Origin: Candidatus Nomurabacteria bacterium GW2011_GWE2_34_25
Lineage (GTDB): Bacteria; Patescibacteriota; Minisyncoccia; Phycocordibacterales; UBA9973
DNA length: 64,000 nt
NCBI GenBank assembly: GCA_000990325.1
Contig: LBPS01000005.1
Span: forward strand, 17,161-81,160
Direction of reading: 5' to 3'
Shown: positions 5,557-44,834 of the stretch, piece by piece
Numbering within the stretch: position 1 is the stretch's first letter
How the letters are laid out: every line of letters starts with the position of its first letter
Program-made: the position numbers and the translations under genes
The notes under the pieces: generated by a model
Databases searched by the model: none
Seen by the model: the letters and a program-made list of their open reading frames with translations, nothing else
What the model was told of the DNA's origin: nothing

Positions 5557-6420
5557 ATGCAAAATCTATCATGGTTTCCATTTTCAATTATTGCAGTTAT
5601 CTGTTTTGGTTTTTCTATGGCTTTCTATAAATTTCCAGCTGCTAAAAACCAGAGTAGGTACTCAGTATCTTTTTGGCAATTATTTATATCTTTCCTATTA
5701 TCTTTAGTTGTTTTCTATAAATATATTCCTGCTACAAATTTAACCACTATAATATATGGCTCTTTATGGGGTTTCTCTTTTTTGTGTTTATCTGTGCTTC
5801 AAATGAAAGCTCTAAAGGAAATAGATACAAATATGTTATACCCAGTTACAACATCCCTAAGTCTAGTTATTTCTGTAATGTTTGGAGTGTTATTTTTTAG
5901 GGATGCTATATCTTGGCTTCAGATTATTGGAATAATTCTAGTAATAATGGTTGTTTATTTATTTTCATATAAAGGTAAAAGTCTACAATATTCAAATAAG
6001 ATTTTAATTATAGGGTTAGGAGTAATTTCATTGTCTACATTCGGTAAAATAATTCAAAAATTTGCTACAGGAGTAAGTTCTGTAAATATAAATACACTTC
6101 AGGTTTACCAGTATCTTTCAGCTGCAATATTCTCATTACTGTTGTACTTATATATAAATAGAAATAAAGCAAACAAAAAACCACATATTGGCTCTATTAT
6201 TTCTGGAGCAATGATTGCTATACCAAGTTTTTTGGGTGGCTTTATGTGGTTAATTGCTTTAAAACGCGGACCGTTTTCTCTGGTGTCTTCTGTTCATTCT
6301 CTTTATATTTTAGTGGTGGCGGTGATTGCGTATTTTATGTTTAAGGAAAAACTAACGTTTAAAAAAATAATATTAATTTTAATTGCCATTTTAGCAATGA
6401 TTTTAATAAAAGTTGGATAA
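5557..6420 (+). CDS. DMT/EamA-like integral membrane transporter
   Basis: 287 aa with about 10 hydrophobic helices in two repeated halves. This is typical of drug/metabolite transporters; family assignment is by architecture only. Confidence 0.45.
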   Translation: MQNLSWFPFSIIAVICFGFSMAFYKFPAAKNQSRYSVSFWQLFISFLLSLVVFYKYIPATNLTTIIYGSLWGFSFLCLSVLQMKALKEIDTNMLYPVTTSLSLVISVMFGVLFFRDAISWLQIIGIILVIMVVYLFSYKGKSLQYSNKILIIGLGVISLSTFGKIIQKFATGVSSVNINTLQVYQYLSAAIFSLLLYLYINRNKANKKPHIGSIISGAMIAIPSFLGGFMWLIALKRGPFSLVSSVHSLYILVVAVIAYFMFKEKLTFKKIILILIAILAMILIKVG

Positions 6421-6440: not shown

Positions 6441-7153
6441 TCCAGCCTTGCTGGTAAAATTATGCATGATATAATACAAAAATGTCAATACGTAAGGTAA
6501 ATTTTGTTCACGGGGAATATTATCACATATATAATCGTGGAAATAGTAAACAAAAAATATTTCAAGATAAGGAAGATTATGAATATTTTCTTAAATTGCT
6601 TTTTATTGCAAATGGTGAAGAAAAATTTAAATTTCATTTTTTAGAAGGTAATGTTTATGAAGCTAAAAGAGGGAATCAACTTGTTGGTATTGGTGCTTAT
6701 GTTTTAATGCCAAATCATTTCCATATACTTATAACCGAAACCCAAGAAGGTGGTATAAGTAAATTTTTACATAAAGTTTCAAGTGGTTATTCTCACTATT
6801 ATAATAAAAAATACGAAAGAACAGGATCTTTATTTGAAGGAAAGTTCAAATCAGAATATATAGATAATAATCGTTATTTTAAATATCTGTTCTCATATAT
6901 TCATCTAAATCCTATTAAGTTGATTCAGAAAAATTGGAAAGAAGAGGGTATCAAGGAGAAAGAAAATATTTTGTATTTTCTTAATGATTATAAATATTCT
7001 AGTTATAAAGATTATTTAAATATATCTAGACAAGAAAATTTAATTCTTAATAGAAAAGATTTTCCCAACTATTTTTCATCAAAAAATACATTTTTAAAAG
7101 AAATATTTGACTGGATTAAGATAGAATTGTAAAATTTTACCAGCAAGGCTGGA
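6441..7153 (+). mobile_element. RAYT-type (IS200-like Y1 transposase) unit bounded by 21-bp perfect inverted REP-like hairpin repeats
   Basis: 6441-6461 TCCAGCCTTGCTGGTAAAATT is the exact reverse complement of 7133-7153. Each arm contains the hairpin CCAGC-CTT-GCTGG. Confidence 0.7.
6482..7132 (+). CDS. IS200/REP-associated tyrosine (Y1, HuH) transposase-like protein
   Basis: YHIYNRGN...KIF, HuH motif LMPNHFHILI, ...RTGSLFEGKFKS... and a catalytic-Tyr region YIHLNPIK. This matches the Y1_Tnp (IS200-like) / RAYT fold. Confidence 0.75.
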   Translation: MSIRKVNFVHGEYYHIYNRGNSKQKIFQDKEDYEYFLKLLFIANGEEKFKFHFLEGNVYEAKRGNQLVGIGAYVLMPNHFHILITETQEGGISKFLHKVSSGYSHYYNKKYERTGSLFEGKFKSEYIDNNRYFKYLFSYIHLNPIKLIQKNWKEEGIKEKENILYFLNDYKYSSYKDYLNISRQENLILNRKDFPNYFSSKNTFLKEIFDWIKIEL

Positions 7154-7214
7154 ATAATATGATTTTTAAAAACAAAGACTTGAAAAAGTCTCTATTTTTG
7201 TATAAGATAAGAAT

Positions 7215-7868
7215 ATGAAAGATGAAGAAATAATAGATAATGAGAAATCTACAGAGGAAAAAGAAAGTATTATAAAGAGAGAAGATCGTTTTAATCCCAT
7301 TGAACTGTCTTCTGGGGAACTTCACGTTGAACCAGACATGATATATGTTGATAGTGATGAAGATGGAGATGCATTGCCATCAAAAGATGTTGTAAAAAAA
7401 CTACGTGAAGAATTAAAAACTTTAAGAAAGGAGAAAGAAGAATATTTGACAGGCTGGCAGAGAGCGAAAGCAGACTATGTGAATTTACAGAAAGAGCTTG
7501 ATTTAGCCCGAATAAATATATCTATTTTAACTAAAGAAAAAATGGTAGAGAAGTTGCTTCCAAGTCTCGATAGTTTCGAGATGGCGTTTTCAAATAAAGA
7601 ACATTGGGAGAAAATAGACAAAGATTGGCAAAATGGCATAACTTCTATATATCAGCAACTTACCTCTGGGTTATCTGAAGCAGGAATTGAAAAAATAGAT
7701 CAGATTGGAATTCCATTTGATCCTAACGTTCATCAGTCTATAAGCATCGTAGCTACAGAAGACCAGACGAAAGATCACACGGTAGAAAAAGTTCTACAAG
7801 TAGGATATAAAATAGGAGAAAGAGTTATTCGCCCAGCCAAAGTCACTATTTTTGAATACAAGAAATAA
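7215..7868 (+). CDS. grpE: nucleotide exchange factor GrpE
   Basis: Coiled-coil N-terminus, then LTGWQRAKADYVN...VIRPAKVTIF, the GrpE signature. It lies upstream of dnaK. Confidence 0.9.
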   Translation: MKDEEIIDNEKSTEEKESIIKREDRFNPIELSSGELHVEPDMIYVDSDEDGDALPSKDVVKKLREELKTLRKEKEEYLTGWQRAKADYVNLQKELDLARINISILTKEKMVEKLLPSLDSFEMAFSNKEHWEKIDKDWQNGITSIYQQLTSGLSEAGIEKIDQIGIPFDPNVHQSISIVATEDQTKDHTVEKVLQVGYKIGERVIRPAKVTIFEYKK

Positions 7869-8367
7869 ATTCTTTTTCGGTTTCTTCATCTATTTTGTCT
7901 GTCACTATAATTATAAGTTCAGTGGAGAGATTTAAATCCTTTTTTATATTTGTAAAGAGATGTTCGAAAGGGTACATAGATATCCAGACAGAATTTTTCA
8001 AGCAGGCGAAGCCTGCTTTCTTAAGCAAGTAACGAAGTGCTTCACGTTCGCTCTTTCTATCCTCAGGCATATCAAGTAGAATTATTCTCCAAAATCCGTC
8101 CCAGGTATTGCTAATAAGAGCATTCTCACATTCAAGCTTCAAACTATTTGCTCGTTTTTTACCTTCTTTTGTGAGCTTTGTATATTGATTTTGCCCTGAA
8201 TATATACTTTCTATCAATCCTGCATCCTTTAGACCCTTTATAGAACGATTTAAGGCATATTGGCTATCCTTATCAAGGACTATCTTTTTTTCTAGTTCTC
8301 CAGCAGATATTGCTGGTTTTTCTGATAGGATTTTTATAATTTTCTTTGAAAAATCACGCTTTTTCAT
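7846..8367 (-). CDS. PaaX-like winged-helix transcriptional regulator
   Basis: C-terminal TWDGFWRIILLDMPEDRKSEREALRYLLKKAGFACLKNSVWISMYP matches the PaaX C-terminal domain pattern (WDGxW...PE...R..LR..L...GF..L.NSVW..P). It is divergent from dnaK. Confidence 0.55.
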   Translation of the reverse strand: MKKRDFSKKIIKILSEKPAISAGELEKKIVLDKDSQYALNRSIKGLKDAGLIESIYSGQNQYTKLTKEGKKRANSLKLECENALISNTWDGFWRIILLDMPEDRKSEREALRYLLKKAGFACLKNSVWISMYPFEHLFTNIKKDLNLSTELIIIVTDKIDEETEKEFISCIQK

Positions 8368-8405
8368 GGTATTGACAGTGTATCATATATGAATATAATA
8401 TTCAA

Positions 8406-8433
8406 CAAGTATTTAGCGGTCGCTAAATACTTG
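8406..8433. promoter_or_regulatory. 28-bp palindromic operator (13-nt arms) between the divergent regulator and dnaK
   Basis: CAAGTATTTAGCG-gt-CGCTAAATACTTG. It overlaps the -35 (TTGTCA 8431-8436) of a promoter with -10 TATAAT at 8453-8458 and a 16-nt spacer. Confidence 0.6.
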
Positions 8434-8485
8434 TCAAAAATTAAAGTTAGTATATAATGAGATAGTGTTTAAAAATAATTAACTT

Positions 8486-8555
8486 CGCAGAAATATTAAA
8501 ATTTTCACAGCTTTACCCTAAAGGGCTCCGACGCTGATAAAAATTTTAACATTTC
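8486..8555 (+). repeat. conserved upstream motif, copy 1 (upstream of dnaK)
   Basis: GCTTTACCC-loop-GGG...ACG...TTTnAACATTTnTnCTCCGTTA, enclosed by an inverted repeat gcagaaatattaaaattttcacag / ctgataaaaattttaacatttctgc. The second copy is at 38161-38233. Confidence 0.6.
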
Positions 8556-8594
8556 TGCTCCGTTAATAATATTATTAATTAATTATAAAAACAT

Positions 8595-10490
8595 ATGAGT
8601 AAAATTATAGGTATCGATTTGGGTACAACAAATAGTGCAGTGGCTATCATTGAAGGTGGTCAACCAAAAATTATTGAGAATATCGAGGGTGCTCGTACAA
8701 CTCCATCAGTGGTAGCAATTACCAAGAATGGTGATCGTATGGTGGGTCTTCTAGCGAAGCGTCAAGCAGTGACGAATCCTGAAAATACTGTTTACGGTAT
8801 TAAGAGATTCATTGGTCACATGTACGATGATCCAGAAATTCAGAAAGACGAGAAGACTATTCCTTACAAAATTCAGAAAGGAAGTACTGGTGGAGTAGAA
8901 ACAAAGATTGGAGATAGTTGGCTACGCCCAGAAGAGATTTCCGCTATGATTTTAAGTAAGATTAAGGCAGATGTAGAAGCAAAGCTCGGTGAGAAGATTA
9001 CTGAAGCAGTTATTACAGTTCCTGCATATTTCAACGATGCTCAGAGAAAGGCTACAAAAGACGCAGGGATCATCGCAGGACTTGATGTAAAACGTATTAT
9101 CAATGAACCTACTGCAGCTGCTCTTGCTTATGGATTTAATACAAAGAAAAATGAGAAGATTGTTGTCTACGACTTTGGAGGAGGTACGTTTGACGTGTCA
9201 GTTCTTGAAGTCGGCGATGATGTTATTGAAGTGAAGTCTACCGATGGCGATTCACACATGGGTGGTGAAGACATTGACCAGAAAATTGTGAAGTGGATTG
9301 CCGATGAATACAAGAAAGAATCAGGTATAGATGTTACTAAAGATATGCTCGCATTGCAACGTCTAAAGGAGGCTGCTGAGAAGACAAAGCATGAACTTTC
9401 AACAACAACAGATTCAGAAATAAATATTCCATTTATTACTTCAGATGCATCAGGACCAAAACATTTACTCTTGAAAATGTCTCGTGCGGTTCTAGAGTCT
9501 CTTGCAGAAGAGTATGTAACTCGTTCGATAGAAATTACAAAAAGAGCAGTTGAAGCTTCTCCATTTAAAATGGATGAAATTCATGAGATCATATTGGTTG
9601 GAGGTCAGACAAGAATGCCAAAGATTGTGGAAGAAGTAAAGAAATTGTTTGGTAAAGAACCAAATCGTTCAATCAATCCAGATGAAGTAGTAGCTCTCGG
9701 TGCTGCAGTACAAGCTGGAGTCCTACAGGGCGACGTACGCGACGTTCTTCTTCTAGACGTTATTCCACTATCTCTTGGAATAGAAACTCTTGGGAGGGTC
9801 GCCACAAAGCTCGTAGAACGCAACACAACCATACCTTCATCTAAGTCACAAATATTCTCAACTGCCGCAGACAATCAGACAAGCGTAGAAATACACATTA
9901 CTCAAGGTGAGCGTCCAATGGCAAGTGACAACAAGTCTCTCGGTAGATTTATCTTAGATGGTATTCCACCTTCACCACGAGGTATTCCTCAGGTGGAAGT
10001 TACCTTCGATGTAGATGCCAATGGAATCTTAAATGTGAAAGCCATGGACAAAGCTTCAGGCAAAGTTCAGTCAATTCGTATTGAAGCAAGTTCAGGACTT
10101 ACAGAAGCAGATATTAAAAAGATGCGAGATGAAGCAGAAGCTCATGCTGAAGAAGACGCTAAAAAGAAAGAATTAGCTGATCATAAGAATACAGCTGAAA
10201 TGATGATTTTCACAGCTGAGAAATCAGTCAAAGAATATGGCGACAAAGTTACTCCAGAAATAAAGACAGAAATAGAAAGTAAAATAACTGCGTTAAAAAC
10301 TGCAAAAGAAGGCAACGACATGGAAGCTATAAAGAAAGCAACAGAAGAACTTTCAAATGAAATGTCGAAAATTGGCGATAAGGCTCCAGAAGAGCAAGGC
10401 CCAGAAATAAGAGATGCGGAAACTACTGAAAGTAGTGCAGGTGCTGACAAAGGAAGTGCAGAAGTAAATGAAAATCCAGAACAGAAATAG
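8595..10490 (+). CDS. dnaK: molecular chaperone DnaK (Hsp70)
   Basis: [18 protein letters not shown], and 631 aa in length. Confidence 0.97.
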
Positions 10491-10651: not shown

Positions 10652-11740
10652 ATGCCCAAAGATTATTACAAAACATTAGGAGTAGATAAGAATGCTTCGA
10701 AGGAAGAGATTAAGAAAGCTTTCCATAAGCTGGCTCATGCTCATCATCCAGACAAGAATAAAGGTGATGATAAAAAGTTTAAGGAAATAAATGAAGCTTA
10801 TCAGGTTCTTTCGGATGACAAGAAGCGAGCTTCTTTCGATCAATTTGGTAATGCCGATGGACCTCAGGGCTTCGGTGGCGGAGGATTTGGGGGACAAGGA
10901 GGATTTGGAGGGTTTGATTTCACAGGGCAGAATGGTGGAGTGGAATTTGATATGGGTAACCTAGGAGATATCTTCGGAGACTTTTTCGGTGGGGGTATGG
11001 GACGTAGTCAAAAAGTTAAGAAAGGTAGAGACGTACAGACGGAAATAACCCTAACTTTCGAAGAAGCTATTTTTGGTGTAGATAAAAATATAAAAATAAA
11101 TAAGCAGTCAGTCTGTAGTATTTGTGGTGGTACAGGGGCGAAAGTTGGCACCAAAATGAATACTTGTAACACTTGCGATGGGCAAGGGCAAGTACGAGAG
11201 GTTCGTCGTTCTATACTTGGCAACTTTGCGACGACGAAAACTTGCGAGACTTGTTTTGGAAAAGGAAAAGTTCCTTCTGAAAAGTGTAGTAACTGTAAGG
11301 GTGCTGGTGTAGTAAGGAAAGATGAAGAAATAAGTCTAAATATTCCGTCAGGTATAAATAATGCTGAGACTCTTCGTGTACGTGGGAGGGGCGAAGCTAT
11401 ACAAGGAGGAGAGGCTGGGGATTTGTACGTGAAGCTCGATGTGAAGTCGCACCCTGTTTACACTCGTGAAGGGCAAAACTTAATGATGGATTTGAATATT
11501 AAACTCACAGATGCACTCCTCGGTATGACTTACAACTTGAAAACTCTTGATGGGAAGAACATGGAAGTGAAAATTCCTGAAGGTATAAACAATGGTGAGA
11601 TGCTTCGTGTAAAAGGTAAAGGTGTACCAACTACTCACGGCAAAGGCGATACCATCATCCGTATTCACGTAAACATGCCATCCAAACTTTCCCGCAAAGC
11701 AAAAGAGTCTATCGAAAAGCTAAAAGAAGAGGGAATCTAA
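10652..11740 (+). CDS. dnaJ: chaperone DnaJ (Hsp40)
   Basis: J-domain HPDKN, a G/F-rich linker, four CxxCxGxG zinc-finger repeats, and a C-terminal domain. Confidence 0.95.
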
Positions 11741-11877: not shown

Positions 11878-13263
11878 ATGACAAAACGTTCAATTACTTC
11901 TAAGAAACTTTGGAAGCTAGGGGTCAATGATTTCAACACTCAATATTTTGATTTTAATAAGGAGGGGGATCTAATTATAAAGGAGGGGCACAATATATAT
12001 AATGTTAAATATTTGGCCGAAAAATTTGGGACATCATTAGAAATATTGATGCCTTTTGTCATTGAAGAAAGACTGGAAGACTTCCTAGATCTTACAGCTG
12101 CACTTTCAAAGAAAGTAGGATACAAGGGTAAATTCTTCTACCACTATCCGATGAAAGTAAACCAGAGTAAGGAGATAGTCATGTCTATCGTCGGTGAAGG
12201 TGCTCACCTTGAGACTTCGTCTTACAACGAACTTTGGCTTGTGAAGAAGATGCTTGAACAAGAAACCTTCAATCCAAACATTCGTATTCTTTGCTCCGGA
12301 CCAAAAACTGATAAATATATAAATCTTATAGACGATCTTCAACACAAAGGAGTGAAGATCTTTCCACTTATTGAAGGCCCCAATGAGCTTAAGTTTTTAC
12401 AGTATTCTAAATACGATGTTGGCATAAGACTTGATATGCCTATCAAGGCAAGCTCGTACTGGAACAAGCCGATAGACCGCTTTGGATTCTCCTCTAAAGA
12501 AATTCTAGAAATGGGCTCATTTAAGAATCTAAAAATTCTTCACTATCACATAGGTTCACAGATTGAGAAGCTCTCAGATGTCTTGGGTCCTATAAAGTAT
12601 GCTCTTGATGTATTCTTTAAGCTTAAAGAGAAGAATCCATCACTTGATACTCTAGATATCGGTGGAGGTATGCCTATCCCTTACATGAGGACAAAGGGTT
12701 ACCCTGTCGATAAATTAATGGAGAAAATTTTGAAACTTATAAAAACAGAATCAGAAAAGAGGGAACTTCCTCATCCAAATCTAGTTTGTGAATGGGGTCG
12801 CTATATAGTAGCACCAGCTCAAATTTCAGTATTTAAAGTTATTGATACGAAAAGGATTTCAAATAAAAAGAGTCCAGCTAAGAAGTGGTACGTTATCGAT
12901 GGAAGCTTCATGAACGACCTGCTTGATACTTGGTCTATTGGTCAGAAGTGGGCTATTTCTCCGGTAAATAATAAAAGAGACGGAGAACTTACAGATGTAT
13001 GGCTAGCAGGCTCTTCGTGTGACTCAGATGATGTATATACAGGTATTGATGGTTCAGTAACTCTTCCGGATTATAATTCAAATAATGGCGACGGAGAGCC
13101 TATGTACATAGTAGTCTACGATACTGGAGCTTACCAGACTTCGCTTGCTGCTCAGCATTGTATGCTTTCCTCCCCAATGAAAATAGTAGCTGAGAACGGG
13201 CATATTGTAGTTGCTCGTAAGCATGAATCCCCTGAAGATATTGGGAAAAACTTTGGGTGGTAG
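11878..13263 (+). CDS. PLP-dependent Orn/DAP/Arg decarboxylase family protein (arginine decarboxylase-like)
   Basis: Alanine-racemase-fold decarboxylase motifs HIGSQ and DIGGGMP. Its position ahead of aguB/aguA suggests an ADC role. Confidence 0.6.
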   Translation: MTKRSITSKKLWKLGVNDFNTQYFDFNKEGDLIIKEGHNIYNVKYLAEKFGTSLEILMPFVIEERLEDFLDLTAALSKKVGYKGKFFYHYPMKVNQSKEIVMSIVGEGAHLETSSYNELWLVKKMLEQETFNPNIRILCSGPKTDKYINLIDDLQHKGVKIFPLIEGPNELKFLQYSKYDVGIRLDMPIKASSYWNKPIDRFGFSSKEILEMGSFKNLKILHYHIGSQIEKLSDVLGPIKYALDVFFKLKEKNPSLDTLDIGGGMPIPYMRTKGYPVDKLMEKILKLIKTESEKRELPHPNLVCEWGRYIVAPAQISVFKVIDTKRISNKKSPAKKWYVIDGSFMNDLLDTWSIGQKWAISPVNNKRDGELTDVWLAGSSCDSDDVYTGIDGSVTLPDYNSNNGDGEPMYIVVYDTGAYQTSLAAQHCMLSSPMKIVAENGHIVVARKHESPEDIGKNFGW

Positions 13264-13305: not shown

Positions 13306-14325
13306 ATGCAAAATACAAATTTACCTACATTAGAATTTATTCTAAAGAATTATAAGAACTTCAATTCTCGTGCTACCAAGGATGCAACTATTGCTTACTG
13401 GCGACACATAGAGCGCGGTGGCAAGATGTTCTGGGCTGTCGGAGGGGCTATGTCTTCAGCACAGATGGGTATTACTCTTGCTCCAGCTATTCGCGAAGGA
13501 CTTATCTCTGGTATGTCTGTAACAGGTGCAAACTTGGAAGAATCTCTCTTTCGTCTTGTTGCTCATAATTCTTATAAAGATTTCCCAGATTACAGATATT
13601 TCACAAAAGAAGATGATACAAAGATTCTAGAAGATCGTATGCGTCGTGTGACAGATACAAGTATTCCTGAAGATGAAGCTTTCCGAGTGGTAGAGAAGCA
13701 GATAGTTCCTGTATGGAAAGAAAATACAGCCAATGGAGTTCGCAAATTCTGGCATGAGTACTTTTATGATCTTATAAAGAATATCGACAAAGAAAAGCAT
13801 GAAGGTAGGGCAGATGAGTGCTGGCTTCTTGCGGCCGCCGAGAACAATATTCCTATAGTTGTTCCAGGACATGAGGATTCAACTTTTGGAAATATTTTTG
13901 CTTCATATGTAAAGACTGGTGAGTGTAGTCCTAATATCGTAAAGTCAGGTATTGAGTATATGGCAGAGTTTTATGATCAATATCAAGAACTTTCCAAGGG
14001 TGAAGGAGTTGGATTCTTCCAAATTGGTGGTGGTATTTCAGGAGATTTTCCAATCTGCGTAGTTCCATCTATAAAATATGACTTACAAAAAGAAGTAAAG
14101 CCATGGGCTTATTTCTGTCAGATTTCAGATTCGACTACTTCATATGGTTCATACTCAGGAGCAACTCCAAACGAGAAGATAACTTGGGACAAGCTTACTA
14201 AGGATACTCCAATGTTCGTGATAGAATCCGATGCCACTATCGTATCACCACTTATGCTTACTGCTCTTCTAGAATGTAAAGCAAATCCTGAAAAAGCAAA
14301 TGAATTGATTAAAAAATTAGCATAA
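13306..14325 (+). CDS. deoxyhypusine synthase-like protein (DHS/homospermidine synthase family)
   Basis: 339 aa. ...AVGGAMSSAQMGITLAPAIREGLISGMSVTGANLEE... resembles the DHS NAD-binding core. It is embedded in the polyamine cluster. Confidence 0.5.
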   Translation: MQNTNLPTLEFILKNYKNFNSRATKDATIAYWRHIERGGKMFWAVGGAMSSAQMGITLAPAIREGLISGMSVTGANLEESLFRLVAHNSYKDFPDYRYFTKEDDTKILEDRMRRVTDTSIPEDEAFRVVEKQIVPVWKENTANGVRKFWHEYFYDLIKNIDKEKHEGRADECWLLAAAENNIPIVVPGHEDSTFGNIFASYVKTGECSPNIVKSGIEYMAEFYDQYQELSKGEGVGFFQIGGGISGDFPICVVPSIKYDLQKEVKPWAYFCQISDSTTSYGSYSGATPNEKITWDKLTKDTPMFVIESDATIVSPLMLTALLECKANPEKANELIKKLA

Positions 14326-16341: not shown

Positions 16342-16962
16342 ATGGATATAGATATCAGATTTTTACTAGGTATTGTTGCGGGAGTTATAGCTTTTTCTGC
16401 GTACATTATTTATATCATTTCTATCATACGCGGTGGATCAAAACCCAATAGGGCAACTTGGTGGATTTGGTCTTTTATGGGATTAGTTTTAGCTGTTAGT
16501 TACTATTTTTCAGGAGCAGGGAATACAATTTGGGTTCCAATTGTTGAATTTATTGGACCATTTTCTATTGCGATTCTTTCTATTAAATATGGTGAGGGTG
16601 GGCTTGAAAATAAAACAGATTTATATTGTATTTTTGGTGCAGTATTAAGTATTATACTTTGGATTATTTTTGATAATGCTGTTATTGCTTTAGTGACAAA
16701 TCTTATAACTGATACATTTGCAATAATTCCAACCATTAGAAAATCTTATAATAGACCAGAGGGAGAAGATTTTTCTGCTTGGTTTGGTACAGGATTAGCT
16801 GATACCATGAATTTATTTGCGGTTGAAAGAGGAACATTTGGAATATTGGTTTATCCTATATATATGCTTGTTTCTGATTTGATTATTATTATTATTTTAT
16901 TAATTAAGAAACCCAAGAAAGGTCTCTTTAACTTTTTACGTAAAGAAAATGGAAATATATAA
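16342..16962 (+). CDS. hypothetical multi-pass membrane protein
   Basis: 206 aa with 5-6 predicted TM helices. I recognise no family. Confidence 0.35.
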   Translation: MDIDIRFLLGIVAGVIAFSAYIIYIISIIRGGSKPNRATWWIWSFMGLVLAVSYYFSGAGNTIWVPIVEFIGPFSIAILSIKYGEGGLENKTDLYCIFGAVLSIILWIIFDNAVIALVTNLITDTFAIIPTIRKSYNRPEGEDFSAWFGTGLADTMNLFAVERGTFGILVYPIYMLVSDLIIIIILLIKKPKKGLFNFLRKENGNI

Positions 16963-17488
16963 AGGTGAAAGTAAGTTGCACGGTGTTGGATTGTTTGCTT
17001 TAAAAAACATAAAGAAAGGAAAGATTGTTTTAGTTGTAAAGGGGGAAAGAATAAAATTTTTAATTGATAGTGATGATCAGGCAAAAACTGCTGAATTAAA
17101 TTGGTTTGGATTTTCAAAGAACACTTGGATTGGTGTTAGTAATAATCTTTGTGATTTTATTAATCATTCTTGTAATCCTAATGTAGGAGTTAAAGGTCAG
17201 GTTACTCTTGTTGCCATAAGAGATATCAAGAAAGACGAAGAAATTACATTAGACTACTCTTTAAATGAAGCTGATATATTTTGGAACATGAAATGTAATT
17301 GTGGAGAGAAAAATTGTCGTAAGATTATAAAATCAATACAATTTATATCTAAAGAAAAATATAAAAAATATAAAAAATATATTCCTCAGTATTTTAAGAA
17401 TGTATTTTTAAATTTTAATATATTAAACTTTAAAAACATAGAAGAACTCAAAATTAAATGGGTGGATTTCTTAAAAAGTAATTTTTAG
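16949..17488 (+). CDS. SET-domain protein (putative protein lysine methyltransferase)
   Basis: FINHSCNPN (the NHSCxPN SET signature), ITLDYS (the ELTFDY-like motif), and a post-SET CNCGEKNC cysteine cluster. Confidence 0.7.
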   Translation: MEIYKGESKLHGVGLFALKNIKKGKIVLVVKGERIKFLIDSDDQAKTAELNWFGFSKNTWIGVSNNLCDFINHSCNPNVGVKGQVTLVAIRDIKKDEEITLDYSLNEADIFWNMKCNCGEKNCRKIIKSIQFISKEKYKKYKKYIPQYFKNVFLNFNILNFKNIEELKIKWVDFLKSNF

Positions 17489-24756: not shown

Positions 24757-24765
24757 ATGTTTACC

Positions 24766-24807
24766 GAAGCCTTGCTTCGGTGAGCTCACCGAAGCAAGGC
24801 TTCGGTA
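24766..24807. repeat. 42-nt perfect palindrome (REP-like double hairpin) between dnaB and recR
   Basis: CCGAAGCCTTGCTTCGGTGA-GC-TCACCGAAGCAAGGCTTCGG. Each arm also self-folds as CCGAAGC-CTT-GCTTCGG, which has the same CTTGCT core as the RAYT-flanking hairpin. Confidence 0.7.
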
Positions 24808-24833
24808 ACGCTAATAAATGCTAATAAATTTAA

Positions 24834-26225
24834 TTAAAACTGATCCATGTCTCCGCCACTATTTCCTGTTGGAACGTATTGATGTCCACCTGTTTTATCT
24901 ATCGATACGAAAGTTGTAGTCTTCTCGTCGAAGTAAAGATCAACCTTACCAACTGGGCCATTTCTATGCTTTTCAATAAGTATTTCAGCGATGTTTGTCT
25001 TCTCACTTTCATCTTTACCTTTATCTTCTCTGTGTATGAACATAACGATGTCGGCATCCTGCTCGATAGATCCTGAGTCACGGAGGTCAGAAAGGCGAGG
25101 ACGTCCTCCACGAGATTCAACAGCACGAGAAAGCTGAGAGAGAGCAAGCACTGGCACGTCGAATTCTTTCGCAAGAGATTTGAGAGAACGTGAAATTTCT
25201 GTCACTTGGTTTACCATGTTGTCATAATTCTTTGAAGTAGACATAAGCTGTAAATAGTCAACAATAATGAGCCCTATACCATGCTCAGCCCTGATACGAC
25301 GACAAACAGAACGCATACGAACGATAGAGTTACCAGCTAAGTCGTCGACGAAAATAGGAGCCTTAGAAAGGCTATCGAGAGAGTCACGGATTTTAGCAAA
25401 TTCACTTTCAGCTGTTAAGTTTCCAGTACGAAGATTCCAAGCATTGACTCGTGATTGAGCGGCGAGCATTCTATCTACAAGCTGTTGAGTACTCATTTCA
25501 AGAGAAAAGATAACGGTAGGAGTTCCGTGATTCATTGCTGCTTGGCGAGCGATATCGAGTGCAAGAGTTGTCTTACCCATAGAAGGACGAGCTGCAAGAA
25601 TAATCAAGTCAGACTTCTGAAGACCAGAAAGGTATTGATCGAGATCGTGGAAGCCTGTTGGTACTCCACGAAGCTCACCCTTACTTTCATGAAGCTTCTC
25701 CAAGCGTTCCCATGCTTCAGGCAAGCTGTCTTTCAGAGAAGTGAAAGCATGCCCGGACATATTATTGTTGATACCCATCATTCTCTTTTCAGCTTGATCT
25801 AGAATTTCGAAGACATTCTCTACTTCTTCGGTAAAACCGAGCTCAGAAATATCACCTCCCGCGTCAATAATTTTTCTTAAGAGATGTTTCTGTGCTACTA
25901 AGTCCGCATAATATTTAATATTGGTAGATGCAGGCACAGAATTACTAAGCTCAGTTAGGTAACTATTACCACCGACAGAATCGAGCATTCCTTTTTCTTT
26001 AAGTTTATTTGAGACAGTAAGAAGGTCAATAGGGTCACCCTTACTTGAAAGCTCGAGCATTATCTTGTAAATATTTGAATGTTTGGCAACATAAAAAGAG
26101 TCAACATTGATGATATCATTGATTTCATGAATAGCTGAAGGGCGAAGCATTATAGAACCGAGAACTGCCTTTTCTCCATCAATGCTTTGTGGAGGAATAC
26201 GAATATTTGTTTTTTTGTCTGACAT
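24834..26225 (-). CDS. dnaB: replicative DNA helicase DnaB
   Basis: Walker A PSMGKT, GLIIVDYLQLM, and RecA-like core motifs across 463 aa. Confidence 0.95.
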   Translation of the reverse strand: MSDKKTNIRIPPQSIDGEKAVLGSIMLRPSAIHEINDIINVDSFYVAKHSNIYKIMLELSSKGDPIDLLTVSNKLKEKGMLDSVGGNSYLTELSNSVPASTNIKYYADLVAQKHLLRKIIDAGGDISELGFTEEVENVFEILDQAEKRMMGINNNMSGHAFTSLKDSLPEAWERLEKLHESKGELRGVPTGFHDLDQYLSGLQKSDLIILAARPSMGKTTLALDIARQAAMNHGTPTVIFSLEMSTQQLVDRMLAAQSRVNAWNLRTGNLTAESEFAKIRDSLDSLSKAPIFVDDLAGNSIVRMRSVCRRIRAEHGIGLIIVDYLQLMSTSKNYDNMVNQVTEISRSLKSLAKEFDVPVLALSQLSRAVESRGGRPRLSDLRDSGSIEQDADIVMFIHREDKGKDESEKTNIAEILIEKHRNGPVGKVDLYFDEKTTTFVSIDKTGGHQYVPTGNSGGDMDQF

Positions 26226-36726: not shown

Positions 36727-38142
36727 ATGTCAAAAGAATACTATACTACCATCGGCCTTGAGATACATGCGGAACTAAATACCAATTCTAAAATGTTTTG
36801 TGGTTGCAAGAACGACCCAGACGAAGTAAAACCAAATGTAAATATCTGCCCAGTTTGTATGGCTCATCCTGGTACTCTGCCTGTTATAAACAAGAAGGCA
36901 GTAGAGAGCGTTATAAAGGTAGGGCTTGCGCTCGGGGCCAATATTGCAGACTTTACAGAATTTGATAGAAAAAATTACTTTTATCCAGATATTCCAAAAG
37001 CTTACCAGATCTCACAATATAAATACCCAATCGTTTCTGGTGGCTCTCTTAAGGGAGTAGACATTACTCGTGTGCACCTAGAAGAAGATACCGCTACAAG
37101 TAAACATGACAGAGGGGATTATTCTCTTGTAGATTTTAATCGATGTGGGGTGCCTTTGATGGAGCTTGTGACCGAACCAGTAATTCATTCTTCTAAACAA
37201 GCTGGGGACTTCGGGAGAGAATTACAAACAGTCCTTCGGTACTTAGGAGTATCTGAAGCTAATATGGAAAAAGGTCAGATGAGAGTAGAACTCAACATTT
37301 CAATATCAGAAGACCCTAAGGTTTTTGGTACAAAGGTAGAAGTTAAAAATATTAATTCTTTCAAGGCGATGGAGCGTGCGGCAGAATATGAGATAAAAAG
37401 AATGTCCGCACTACTTGATACAGGAGAAGGAGATAAAATAGTTCAGGAAACTCGTGGTTGGGATGAAAGTAAACAGTCTACCTTCTCTCAGCGAAAGAAA
37501 GAAAATGCCAACGACTATAGATACTTCCCAGATCCAGATTTACCAAAACTATTTTTAAGTAAAGTTTTTGATATAGAAAAGATGAGAAGTGAACTTCCAG
37601 AACTTCCAGAAGCAAGAAGAAATAGATATAGGAATGATTGTGGAATTAAAGATGAAGATATAGAGAGTTATATTGTGGACAAAGAACTTGGCGACTGGTT
37701 CGAGAAAGTAGCAGGGGAGCTAAAAGATAAAAATAAAATTAAAATAGCCTCAAATTATATTACTTCTGATTATTTAGGCCTTAAAAAAGTAAATATGGAA
37801 GTCGGACTTCCATATGTTAAAAATTTTGCTGAGCTTATAGAGATGGTAGTAGAGAATAAAATTTCTTCTCGTGGAGCCAAAGATATCCTTGCTATGATAG
37901 TTATTAAAGATGAATCTCCACTTAAAGTAGCGACTGAAAAAGGGTTACTACAGAATCACGACGAAGGCGCACTCAAAGAAATAATAAAGAAAATTATAGA
38001 TGCCAACCCTACTGTTGTAGAAACCTACAAAGGAGGCAAAGAGAATGCTATAATGTCTCTAGTTGGTCAAGTTATGAAGGAAAGTAAAGGTAGTGCAAAT
38101 CCACAAATGGTTCAAAAATTATTAAAAGAATTATTAAGTTAA
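36727..38142 (+). CDS. gatB: Asp-tRNA(Asn)/Glu-tRNA(Gln) amidotransferase subunit B
   Basis: YYTTIGLEIHAELNTNSKMFCGCKN, the canonical GatB N-terminus, plus a C-terminal YqeY-like tail. Confidence 0.95.
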   Translation: MSKEYYTTIGLEIHAELNTNSKMFCGCKNDPDEVKPNVNICPVCMAHPGTLPVINKKAVESVIKVGLALGANIADFTEFDRKNYFYPDIPKAYQISQYKYPIVSGGSLKGVDITRVHLEEDTATSKHDRGDYSLVDFNRCGVPLMELVTEPVIHSSKQAGDFGRELQTVLRYLGVSEANMEKGQMRVELNISISEDPKVFGTKVEVKNINSFKAMERAAEYEIKRMSALLDTGEGDKIVQETRGWDESKQSTFSQRKKENANDYRYFPDPDLPKLFLSKVFDIEKMRSELPELPEARRNRYRNDCGIKDEDIESYIVDKELGDWFEKVAGELKDKNKIKIASNYITSDYLGLKKVNMEVGLPYVKNFAELIEMVVENKISSRGAKDILAMIVIKDESPLKVATEKGLLQNHDEGALKEIIKKIIDANPTVVETYKGGKENAIMSLVGQVMKESKGSANPQMVQKLLKELLS

Positions 38143-38160
38143 AATAACTACATAAAAATA

Positions 38161-38233
38161 TTCAAATTCTTCGCGCTTTACCCAGATTACTGGGACCTAC
38201 GCGACTCAGAATTTCAACATTTTTACTCCGTTA
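38161..38233 (+). repeat. conserved upstream motif, copy 2 (upstream of gap)
   Basis: Same GCTTTACCC-loop-GGG...ACG...TTTnAACATTTnTnCTCCGTTA pattern as 8486-8555. The outer stem co-varies (ttcaaattcttcgcg / cgcga..gaatttcaa). Confidence 0.6.
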
Positions 38234-43835: not shown

Positions 43836-44834
43836 TTATTTAATTTGAGTTAGTTTATAATTTTCAGGAGCATTCGTTAAATATTCTTCTAATTTTTCTC
43901 TTGAGAGAAGTCCTTTTTGAGGTCCAACTTGTAAGACAACAGACATGGCATTGATAGGTCCCCACGTTAAGGCCTCTTTTAAATCTTTTTCTAATATTAA
44001 GGCCGAGACAACAGCCGAAGCAAAAGCATCACCAGCTCCCGTTGATTCAAAAGAGGATGTGCTGTATACAGGAATAAACCAGATATTGATTCCATCATCT
44101 AAATAAGCCCCCCTAAGCCCATCTGTCATTATTATATTCTTTGGACCAATAGACCTCAACATGGTCATCAATTTAACAGCATCATTTTCTTCGGTTTCTA
44201 AGATTTTTTGAGCTTCAACTAAATTACAGAAGAGTATTTCTGTTTTTTGATATATATCCCTTAAAGCTTCAATTCCAAGTTTAATTTGAAATGTTCCAGG
44301 TTGAAAAGCTAATTTTACCTCAGGAAATTTATTTAAATAATCATTTATTTCTTTGTGATAATCGATTGAATTTGAAGCTAACGACGAAAGATAAACCCAT
44401 TTAGCTTGAGGAACATCTTCACCTAAAGAATAAGGGAATTCTGTATGCTTCACAAGAATTGTTCGCTCAGTTTCGTACCAAAGAACAAAATGATAATTGG
44501 ACTCCATACCAGGAACTATTTTCATATGATCTACATTGACACCATCTTTCATTAAAGATTCTAAGTCTTGTTTGCCTACAGTATCATCCCCAATATAAGA
44601 AACGAGGGACGACTTGAGACCAAGCTTACTTACACCAACTGCTACATTGGGACTGTTGCCTACAGCATGGCATACTTCTGCAGATTCATAGGGTACCTTT
44701 TCTCCGAAACGAAAACATATCTTGCAATGTTCCCCCTGTAAATCACAATTGGCTTCTGCATCAATAATCTTTATAAATGGCTCAGTTGCTATATCTCCTA
44801 TAGCTAGAAAATCTATTTGTTTATCTTTATCCAT
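43836..44834 (-). CDS. PfkB-family carbohydrate kinase
   Basis: Ribokinase-like fold with a C-terminal TGAGDAF motif. Confidence 0.75.
   Translation of the reverse strand: MDKDKQIDFLAIGDIATEPFIKIIDAEANCDLQGEHCKICFRFGEKVPYESAEVCHAVGNSPNVAVGVSKLGLKSSLVSYIGDDTVGKQDLESLMKDGVNVDHMKIVPGMESNYHFVLWYETERTILVKHTEFPYSLGEDVPQAKWVYLSSLASNSIDYHKEINDYLNKFPEVKLAFQPGTFQIKLGIEALRDIYQKTEILFCNLVEAQKILETEENDAVKLMTMLRSIGPKNIIMTDGLRGAYLDDGINIWFIPVYSTSSFESTGAGDAFASAVVSALILEKDLKEALTWGPINAMSVVLQVGPQKGLLSREKLEEYLTNAPENYKLTQIK

Follow-up and report, generated by a model that had tools for sequence, protein, structure and literature searches.

How is the main chaperone operon of a patescibacterium controlled when neither HrcA nor HspR is found beside it? 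The question arises at the grpE-dnaK-dnaJ locus of Candidatus Nomurabacteria bacterium GW2011_GWE2_34_25, which lies in a 64,000-nucleotide stretch of contig LBPS01000005.1 (assembly GCA_000990325.1, positions 17,161 to 81,160 of the forward strand). This whole stretch is called the window here, and positions are counted from its first letter. At the locus, a small gene for a PaaX-like protein is transcribed divergently from dnaK, and a long palindrome lies between the two start codons (Table 1). An earlier note on this DNA had read the arrangement as an autoregulated repressor controlling the chaperone operon, and the synteny of the gene pair together with the conservation and position of the palindrome support that reading. 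We consider it likely that the protein, named mini-PaaX here, is an autoregulated repressor with the dnaK operon as its single target, released under stress and analogous to HspR and HrcA on a different scaffold.

Known heat-shock operators are absent from the locus

HrcA represses grpE-dnaK-dnaJ and groESL, is encoded beside grpE, and acts at a palindromic operator of about 27 bp at the promoter, the controlling inverted repeat of chaperone expression (CIRCE). The earlier note had found neither at this locus, rightly: the CIRCE pattern TTAGCACTC-N9-GAGTGCTAA has no match in the window with up to three mismatches, and a tblastn search with B. subtilis HrcA (an approximate query sequence) gave no match, either in the window or around dnaK in some 200 related loci. 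HspR, the MerR-family repressor of the dnaK operon in Streptomyces, Helicobacter and Deinococcus, is not the regulator here either, as the sole regulator at the locus is a PaaX_M protein; the HspR-associated inverted repeat (HAIR, CTTGAGT-N7-ACTCAAG) is absent from positions 7000-9000. The box of CtsR, the winged-helix class III heat-shock repressor of Firmicutes and an intrinsic thermosensor, is likewise absent from the locus (RGTCAAA-NAN-RGTCAAA).

The regulator is a shortened PaaX-type protein

The regulator gene lies where the earlier note had placed it, on the minus strand and divergent from dnaK, with its 3' end sharing 23 bp with that of grpE. Its product is identical (100%) to a hypothetical protein of Candidatus Nomurabacteria bacterium GW2011_GWF2_35_6x, and a protein search found more than 2,100 homologues, annotated in their sources either as 'hypothetical' or as 'DNA-binding transcriptional regulator PaaX'. 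In Pfam, residues 87-166 match PaaX_M (PF20803, 'PaaX central Cas2-like domain'; E 7.5e-20, 71 bits against a cutoff of 24) and residues 8-72 give weak winged-helix matches (HTH_20/MarR), whereas PaaX_C has no match in the protein, which stops at residue 173. The 'PaaX-type C-terminal domain' of the earlier note is thus a genuine PaaX domain, but it is the central Cas2-like one, C-terminal merely by its position in a short protein. Against the NCBIfam equivalog TIGR02277 the regulator scores 38.3 bits, far below the cutoff of 264.55, and the alignment covers model positions 39-159 of 279, the first half only.

An AlphaFold model built from 31 homologues (predicted local distance difference test, pLDDT, 81) has three helices and two strands at residues 7-65, forming a winged helix, then a low-confidence linker (77-84) and a beta-alpha-beta-beta-alpha-beta-alpha domain. 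The top Foldseek matches of the model were PaaX of E. coli W (8A39, E 2.5e-6), a PaaX-like protein of Jannaschia (3L09) and Rv0674 (3KFW), followed by MarR-type winged-helix repressors; winged-helix proteins of the MarR/ArsR type also aligned. The PaaX-type repressors align over about 170 columns at their N-termini, which spans about half of the 305-residue chain of 8A39 and gives a template-modelling score of 0.25 when normalised to that target. A sequence search of the PDB with the family profile returned nothing below E 0.1, so the link to PaaX rests on the fold comparison. The regulator is therefore the N-terminal two-thirds of a PaaX-type repressor, winged helix plus Cas2-like domain.

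In an alignment of the 31 homologues (62-90% identity), 36 of the 49 invariant positions fall in the Cas2-like half. This half is therefore more constrained than the DNA-binding half, which may point to a function over and above dimerisation. The motif YA(I/L)xRS(I/L)K of the recognition helix is near-invariant. A family profile search over 1.84 billion representatives delimited a tight orthologous group of 21 clusters at E <= 1e-30, surrounded by a large family of two-domain proteins of 170-200 residues (1,025 clusters at E <= 1e-10, clustered at 50% identity).

The regulator keeps company with the DnaK system

Conservation of the gene pair in relatives had been named beforehand as a check, and the synteny proved near-invariant. 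Scanning one genome per GTDB species with a degenerate pattern brought up 418 relatives; the loci fetched were the best 80 of these 418 (L001-L080; relatives are cited below by such locus names). All 80 come from metagenome-assembled genomes of Paceibacteria/Patescibacteria, with regulator proteins 57-93% identical to that of the window. dnaK lies directly upstream of the regulator on the opposite strand in 75 of the 80, and the remaining five are cut by contig ends. In the usual layout grpE converges on the other flank of the regulator and dnaJ follows dnaK. The same divergent pair recurs on about 60 metagenome contigs.

More distant orthologues face the complete operon. P0142 (E 1.5e-30) is divergent from grpE-(PBP)-dnaK-dnaJ and P0156 (E 2.9e-23) from grpE-dnaK-dnaJ, with dnaK called HSP70 in both; the regulator of L105 (44% identity) likewise faces grpE-dnaK-dnaJ, with grpE heading the operon. 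The link with the DnaK system thus extends across the entire orthologous group, and the ancestral layout was probably a regulator divergent from grpE-dnaK-dnaJ. No other candidate regulator is conserved at the locus. There are no paa genes near the regulator, whose neighbours are grpE, dnaK and dnaJ.

Some relatives carry variable genes between the palindrome and dnaK, co-oriented with dnaK, and the site then remains at the head of the operon. One to three such genes are inserted in L079, L033, L028, L050, L060 and L039; they would be co-transcribed with dnaK and include small membrane proteins and, in L079 (4024-4899), a trypsin-like protease (PF13365).

A long palindrome is conserved between the two genes

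The perfect palindrome that the earlier note had described over the dnaK -35 element is real, and its arms are 14 nt, one more than noted; beyond them it extends imperfectly to arms of 23 nt. Its closeness to the regulator start also holds, at a measured distance of 37-38 nt to the start codon rather than 39. In 30 first-order Markov resamples of the window the longest perfect arms were 8-11 nt and never exceeded 11, so that perfect 14-nt arms are not expected by chance. The window's further long palindromes, unlike this one, are GC stems of terminator type, flanked by A and T runs and placed at gene ends.

A symmetrised matrix from 42 sites of relatives gave a 34-nt motif, TGACAAGTATTTCGTGATCACGAAATACTTGTCA, carrying 43.6 bits, with arms 91-98% conserved per position and an invariant core G.G..C.C. 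Like the recognition helix, the predicted operator is nearly invariant. An information-content profile anchored on the palindrome has a sharp footprint against the surrounding intergenic DNA; beyond this footprint, conservation is confined to a -10 box some 31-39 nt rightwards and a TTGACA some 50 nt leftwards. In 122 distinct protein/site pairs the site typically stands 31-35 nt from the regulator ATG, whereas its distance to the dnaK ATG ranges from 27 to more than 1,000 nt among relatives.

The matrix was scanned against the window and L001-L080, 760,863 nt in all. At 18 bits or more, exactly one site per locus was found in 75 of the 81 sources, and there was no second site anywhere in this DNA. 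A metagenome scan with the exact arms CAAGTATTT-N10-AAATACTTG reached at least 120 loci. Among the matches listed, each of the 56 sites that have the canonical core is found no more than 2.5 kb from the regulator or dnaK; three further sites near either gene have variant cores, and 62 sites elsewhere have non-canonical, mostly non-palindromic cores, many of them inside open reading frames. These 62 were considered as a wider regulon and set aside as chance matches by core and position, with the exceptions of L154, L142/L147 and L106. In L106, from a clearly unrelated organism, an AT-rich perfect palindrome with the same outer arms as the operator (CAAGTATTTAGCACATGCTAAATACTTG, 733-760) lies between divergent small open reading frames on a contig of 66% GC.

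Had a second class of promoter, such as that of groESL, carried an equally conserved site, it should have shown up among the matches listed, where no canonical site lay off the locus; weaker sites are possible. groEL and clpB lie outside the fetched flanks of the relatives and were seen only on unrelated contigs. Upstream of separately transcribed grpE genes, half-sites were not enriched over shuffled sequences, and grpE itself has no site. A wider chaperone regulon sharing the palindrome, which the earlier note had proposed to look for, is thus not borne out, and the regulator appears from these scans to be local, with a single operator.

Related regulators have palindromes of their own

Several short PaaX_M paralogues of 127-200 residues occur in Paceibacteria genomes: in L002 (about 5597-6076), L192, L040, L108, L154 (1155-1748) and L147. 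Each has its own, different palindrome of 30-36 bp, placed 6-51 nt upstream of the start codon; for paralogues at 31-36% identity to mini-PaaX the distance is 21-51 nt. Examples are AGGACAAACTCTGCA-cc-TGCAGAGTTTGTCCT at 28 nt from the ATG in L002, ACGGAAACAATTTCTGCA-gg-TGCAGAAATTGTTTCCGT at 25 nt in L192, and TTCTAAATGTGCGCCA--TGGCGCACATTTAGAA at 21 nt in L040. The 197-residue paralogue of L154, which has a thioredoxin-reductase-like gene and a membrane protein gene as neighbours, is flanked by two copies of CAAGTATTTCACGATCGTGAAATACTTG, with the outer arms of the operator and another core. Distant orthologues keep recognisable, diverged palindromes, such as GACAAGTACCTTACG-ac-CGTACAACTATTGTC in L204. 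By this pattern, long palindromes close to a gene go with the mini-PaaX family and not with dnaK as such; the paralogues, in about 1,000 clusters, have other, non-chaperone neighbours.

The same pattern bears on whether the palindrome belongs to mini-PaaX at all. It might instead be the site of another, unlinked regulator or a general promoter element, with mini-PaaX regulating something else: the right arm and -35 region (ACTTGTCAAAA) looks like an ordinary -35 element with an A-tract, and in L031, L033 and L069, where insertions part the regulator from the site, the site keeps to the dnaK side. We regard this as very unlikely, given that site and regulator gene occur together in more than 120 distinct genomes at a spacing fixed near 33 nt, that other members of the family also have long palindromes next to their genes, one of them lying between two copies of a related palindrome, and that mini-PaaX has no conserved competitor at the locus.

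The palindrome lies across the core promoter elements

The sigma70 promoter TTGTCA-16-TATAAT that the earlier note had aimed at dnaK was recovered by our promoter scan and is called P2 here. Across 120 distinct loci its -35 element reads TTGTCA in 76, with TTGCAA or TTGCTA among the rest, and its -10 element, set at a constant distance from the palindrome, reads TATAAT in 72 and TATACT in 20; relative to the right arm, both elements keep a constant register in about 90 of the 120. A second, perfect promoter on the dnaK strand, P1, absent from the earlier account, sits just upstream of the palindrome, so placed that its expected start site is formed by the first palindrome bases. It is found in 75 of the 120 loci as TTGACA with TATAAT, TATATT or TATACT, and its -10 element ends 3-10 nt before the palindrome.

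On the other strand, the putative promoter of the regulator has its -35 element abutting the left arm of the palindrome and leaves 9 nt between its -10 element and the ATG; in the 120 loci the corresponding -10 element ends 9-11 nt before the ATG. Such a spacing would suit a transcript without a leader. Shine-Dalgarno-like sequences precede only 4 of the 52 open reading frames of the window, and a (TG)ATATAAT box stands 6-8 nt before many of its ATG codons (for example 5557, 6482, 38254, 43836-44834 on the minus strand, 59598 and 60838), which suggests that leaderless mRNAs are the norm in this genome. With Shine-Dalgarno sites nearly absent and TATAAT so close to starts, the regulator, too, is probably made from a leaderless type of mRNA. 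In relatives with 38-40 nt between palindrome and dnaK ATG, dnaK is near-leaderless from P2. With a conserved palindromic site between regulator and target and over core promoter elements, the locus has the form of a divergent repressor/operator module.

Could the inverted repeat act as a nucleic-acid hairpin instead, as a 5' stem-loop of the P1 transcript, as an RNA thermometer or stabiliser, or as a terminator? P1 would put the palindrome at the 5' end of the dnaK mRNA, a terminator scan flags it on the minus strand, and some arm changes are compensatory, as in L005 (CAACTATTT/AAATAGTTG). It is the sequence itself that is kept, however, and not pairing alone: arms and core are conserved as described above, on the dnaK strand the core seen most often, CGCGACCACG, is not complementary to itself, and the true hairpins nearby, a stem upstream of grpE and an element in the dnaK leader, drift with compensatory changes. 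Lying between divergent starts, at so variable a distance from the dnaK ATG, the palindrome cannot mask a ribosome-binding site, and these genomes lack Shine-Dalgarno sites anyway. Rfam gave no match to it, and at E values up to 10 only chance-level matches across 7800-8700. We consider a hairpin function extremely unlikely.

The leader of dnaK itself, 130 nt in the window, consists mostly of a long hairpin. It was considered as a conserved thermometer and rejected, being confined to the closest relatives and a repeated element, with a second copy at 38142-38233. The leader hairpin is an inserted repeat element outside the conserved control module. As an element of about 100 nt, it has a core GCTTTACCC..GGG..CCGACGC and long AT-rich stems; its two copies in the window, both directly upstream of a gene start, differ by compensatory changes, and Rfam has no match for it. 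It may be an element like repetitive extragenic palindromes (REP) or miniature inverted-repeat transposable elements, or a small structured RNA.

Table 1. Genes, predicted control elements and leader structure at the chaperone locus (window positions)
Feature	Position	Strand	Basis and remarks
grpE	7215-7868	plus	Pfam GrpE, E 1e-36; convergent with regulator; own promoter, no operator
mini-PaaX regulator gene	7846-8367	minus	Open reading frame, 173 aa; PF20803 match
P1, perfect TTGACA-16-TATAAT, dnaK strand	8372-8399	plus	Promoter scan 12/12; putative function
Putative regulator promoter, TTGAAT (8405-8400), 17-nt spacer, TACACT (8382-8377)	8377-8405	minus	Weak match, 8/12
Predicted operator, palindrome ACAAGTATTTAGCG-gt-CGCTAAATACTTGT	8405-8434		Perfect, 14+2+14
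P2, dnaK-operon promoter TTGTCA-16-TATAAT	8431-8458	plus	Promoter scan 11/12; -35 in right arm of palindrome
Long hairpin in dnaK leader	8472-8573	plus	RNA fold -28.6 kcal/mol, z = -4.3
dnaK	8595-10490	plus	Open reading frame; homologues 70-97% identical adjoin regulator in related loci
dnaJ	10652-11740	plus	Open reading frame; downstream of dnaK in the same operon; position kept in relatives

A model for coupled repression and autoregulation

From the architecture of the protein, the synteny, and the conservation and position of the site, we infer the following. Mini-PaaX, a winged helix joined to a Cas2-like dimerisation domain, would occupy the 28-34-bp palindrome between its own gene and dnaK as a dimer or as a dimer of dimers. 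So bound, it would cover the -35 element of P2, sit on the start site of P1 and abut the -35 element of its own leaderless promoter. Occlusion would then couple repression of the dnaK-dnaJ operon with negative autoregulation; in other lineages the repressed operon would be grpE-dnaK-dnaJ, or would include the extra inserted genes. By analogy with HspR/DnaK and HrcA/GroEL, proteotoxic stress is the likeliest signal for release, which could come about if a chaperone partner is titrated away or, as in CtsR, through an intrinsic lability of the unusually conserved Cas2-like domain. We favour this signal since the DnaK system is the target in all lineages, the ligand domain of PaaX is missing, and the Cas2-like domain is unusually invariant.

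Several observations weigh against this model. The half-site of 13 nt is long for a single winged helix, which is why two dimers are considered. Recognition helix and operator are both near-invariant, and covariation between protein and operator is thus uninformative. Weak promoter-like sites near the dnaK ATG (8546-8575) would escape repression. Autoregulation is not universal, given the insertions in L031, L033 and L069. Finally, mini-PaaX is without the domain said to bind the inducer in PaaX (PMC9493321), and a heat response is argued by analogy.

This last point leads to a serious alternative, in which mini-PaaX binds the palindrome and represses dnaK without sensing heat or proteotoxic stress, either as a homeostatic, autoregulated repressor or in response to a small molecule, as PaaX responds to phenylacetyl-CoA. 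Members of the PaaX family are ligand-responsive metabolic repressors (PMC9493321), and the many clusters of short paralogues with non-chaperone neighbours point to a generic scaffold for local regulators. The chaperone operon, however, is the target in every lineage examined, mini-PaaX lacks the domain to which binding of the CoA ligand is ascribed in PaaX, and no paa genes are nearby. We therefore judge the alternative rather unlikely and retain stress-released repression as the preferred model.

Comparison with known repressors

The nearest relative of mini-PaaX in structure and sequence is PaaX, which has the same N-terminal winged helix followed by a Cas2-like PaaX_M domain. Characterised PaaX represses by competing with RNA polymerase and also represses its own promoter (PMC9493321), the same combination of polymerase occlusion and autoregulation that is proposed here. 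The differences are in size, operator and neighbourhood: PaaX has about 305-316 residues, including a C-terminal helical domain described as inducer-binding (PMC9493321), whereas mini-PaaX has 173 and lacks that domain; the predicted mini-PaaX operator is a contiguous palindrome, in contrast to the PaaX box TGATTC-N27-GAATCA (PMC9493321), of which positions 7000-9000 contain none with up to two mismatches; and PaaX neighbours paa genes, mini-PaaX chaperone genes. Since four defining features of PaaX were looked for and not found, mini-PaaX is not a PaaX equivalog.

With HrcA, mini-PaaX shares a genomic slot, its gene holding the equivalent place beside grpE and dnaK. The operators differ, however: the letters TTAGC..GCTAA that the palindrome shares with CIRCE occur only in the window's own clade, and the family core is TTTCGYG..CRCGAAA.

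HspR offers a parallel in circuit design, as an autoregulated repressor at the dnaK locus with an inverted repeat over the dnaK promoter, and a possible feedback through DnaK may be proposed for mini-PaaX as well. The folds differ (MerR in HspR, winged helix plus Cas2-like domain in mini-PaaX), hspR closes the dnaK operon as its last, co-transcribed gene while the mini-PaaX gene is divergent, and HspR also controls clpB and lon whereas only one site per locus was found for mini-PaaX. CtsR, in turn, is a possible model for ligand-free heat sensing by a small winged-helix protein; it differs in its operator of direct heptad repeats and its clp targets, and has no sequence relationship to mini-PaaX.

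Other features of the window

At about 7166-7208, directly before the grpE -10 box, lies a hairpin of an A-run, a stem and a T-run (AAAGACTTGAAAAAGTCTCT) whose loop bears a -35-like TTGAAA. It is found at the same position in L005, L006, L007, L034, L038 and L074, with varying stem letters and the pairing kept, and may represent a terminator of the preceding gene fused to the grpE promoter, or a structured control element. The open reading frame directly upstream of grpE (6482-7132, plus strand, 216 residues) contains an IS200-like Y1 transposase domain (PF01797, E 7e-8); its product is a candidate REP-associated tyrosine transposase, perhaps connected with the hairpin element repeated in the dnaK leader.

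After dnaJ come an ornithine/arginine-decarboxylase-like gene (11878-13263) and a deoxyhypusine-synthase-like gene (13306-14325); of the two, the decarboxylase-like gene alone served as a query, and many relatives have it downstream of dnaJ. Positions 16949-17488 encode a SET-domain protein. The longest inverted repeat of the window is a perfect palindrome of 48 bp at 24761-24808 (arms TTACCGAAGCCTTGCTTCGGTGAGC and GCTCACCGAAGCAAGGCTTCGGTAA), just downstream of dnaB (24834-26225, minus strand), and each of its arms is itself a hairpin.

Implications

Mini-PaaX looks like a locus-encoded chaperone-operon repressor on a new scaffold, functionally like HspR and HrcA and unrelated to both. In the literature open to our searches we found no description linking PaaX-like proteins with dnaK, HrcA with the candidate phyla radiation (CPR), or heat-shock regulation with the CPR. 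More tentatively, and in a form that we would sooner bet against than on, mini-PaaX may be a fourth independent class of chaperone-operon repressor after HrcA, HspR and CtsR, specific to Patescibacteria, with the Cas2-like domain as stress sensor, either thermolabile or a client or partner of DnaK that closes a feedback loop; the roughly 1,000 clusters around it may then form a major family of one-operator local regulators, each readable from the 30-bp palindrome beside its gene.

Almost nothing is known of transcriptional regulation in the CPR, very few members of which can be grown. Here a regulator comes together with a target, the precise sequence of a predicted operator and the layout of the promoters, and all four are conserved in more than 130 genomes; a synthetic gene and a 34-bp oligonucleotide would suffice to test the prediction, without culture of the organism. 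If confirmed, it would enlarge the small set of protein scaffolds known among bacterial heat-shock repressors and show how the main chaperone is controlled in reduced genomes. It would also open a way to the function of many short PaaX-like proteins, a large family now annotated as 'hypothetical' or, wrongly, as phenylacetate regulators.

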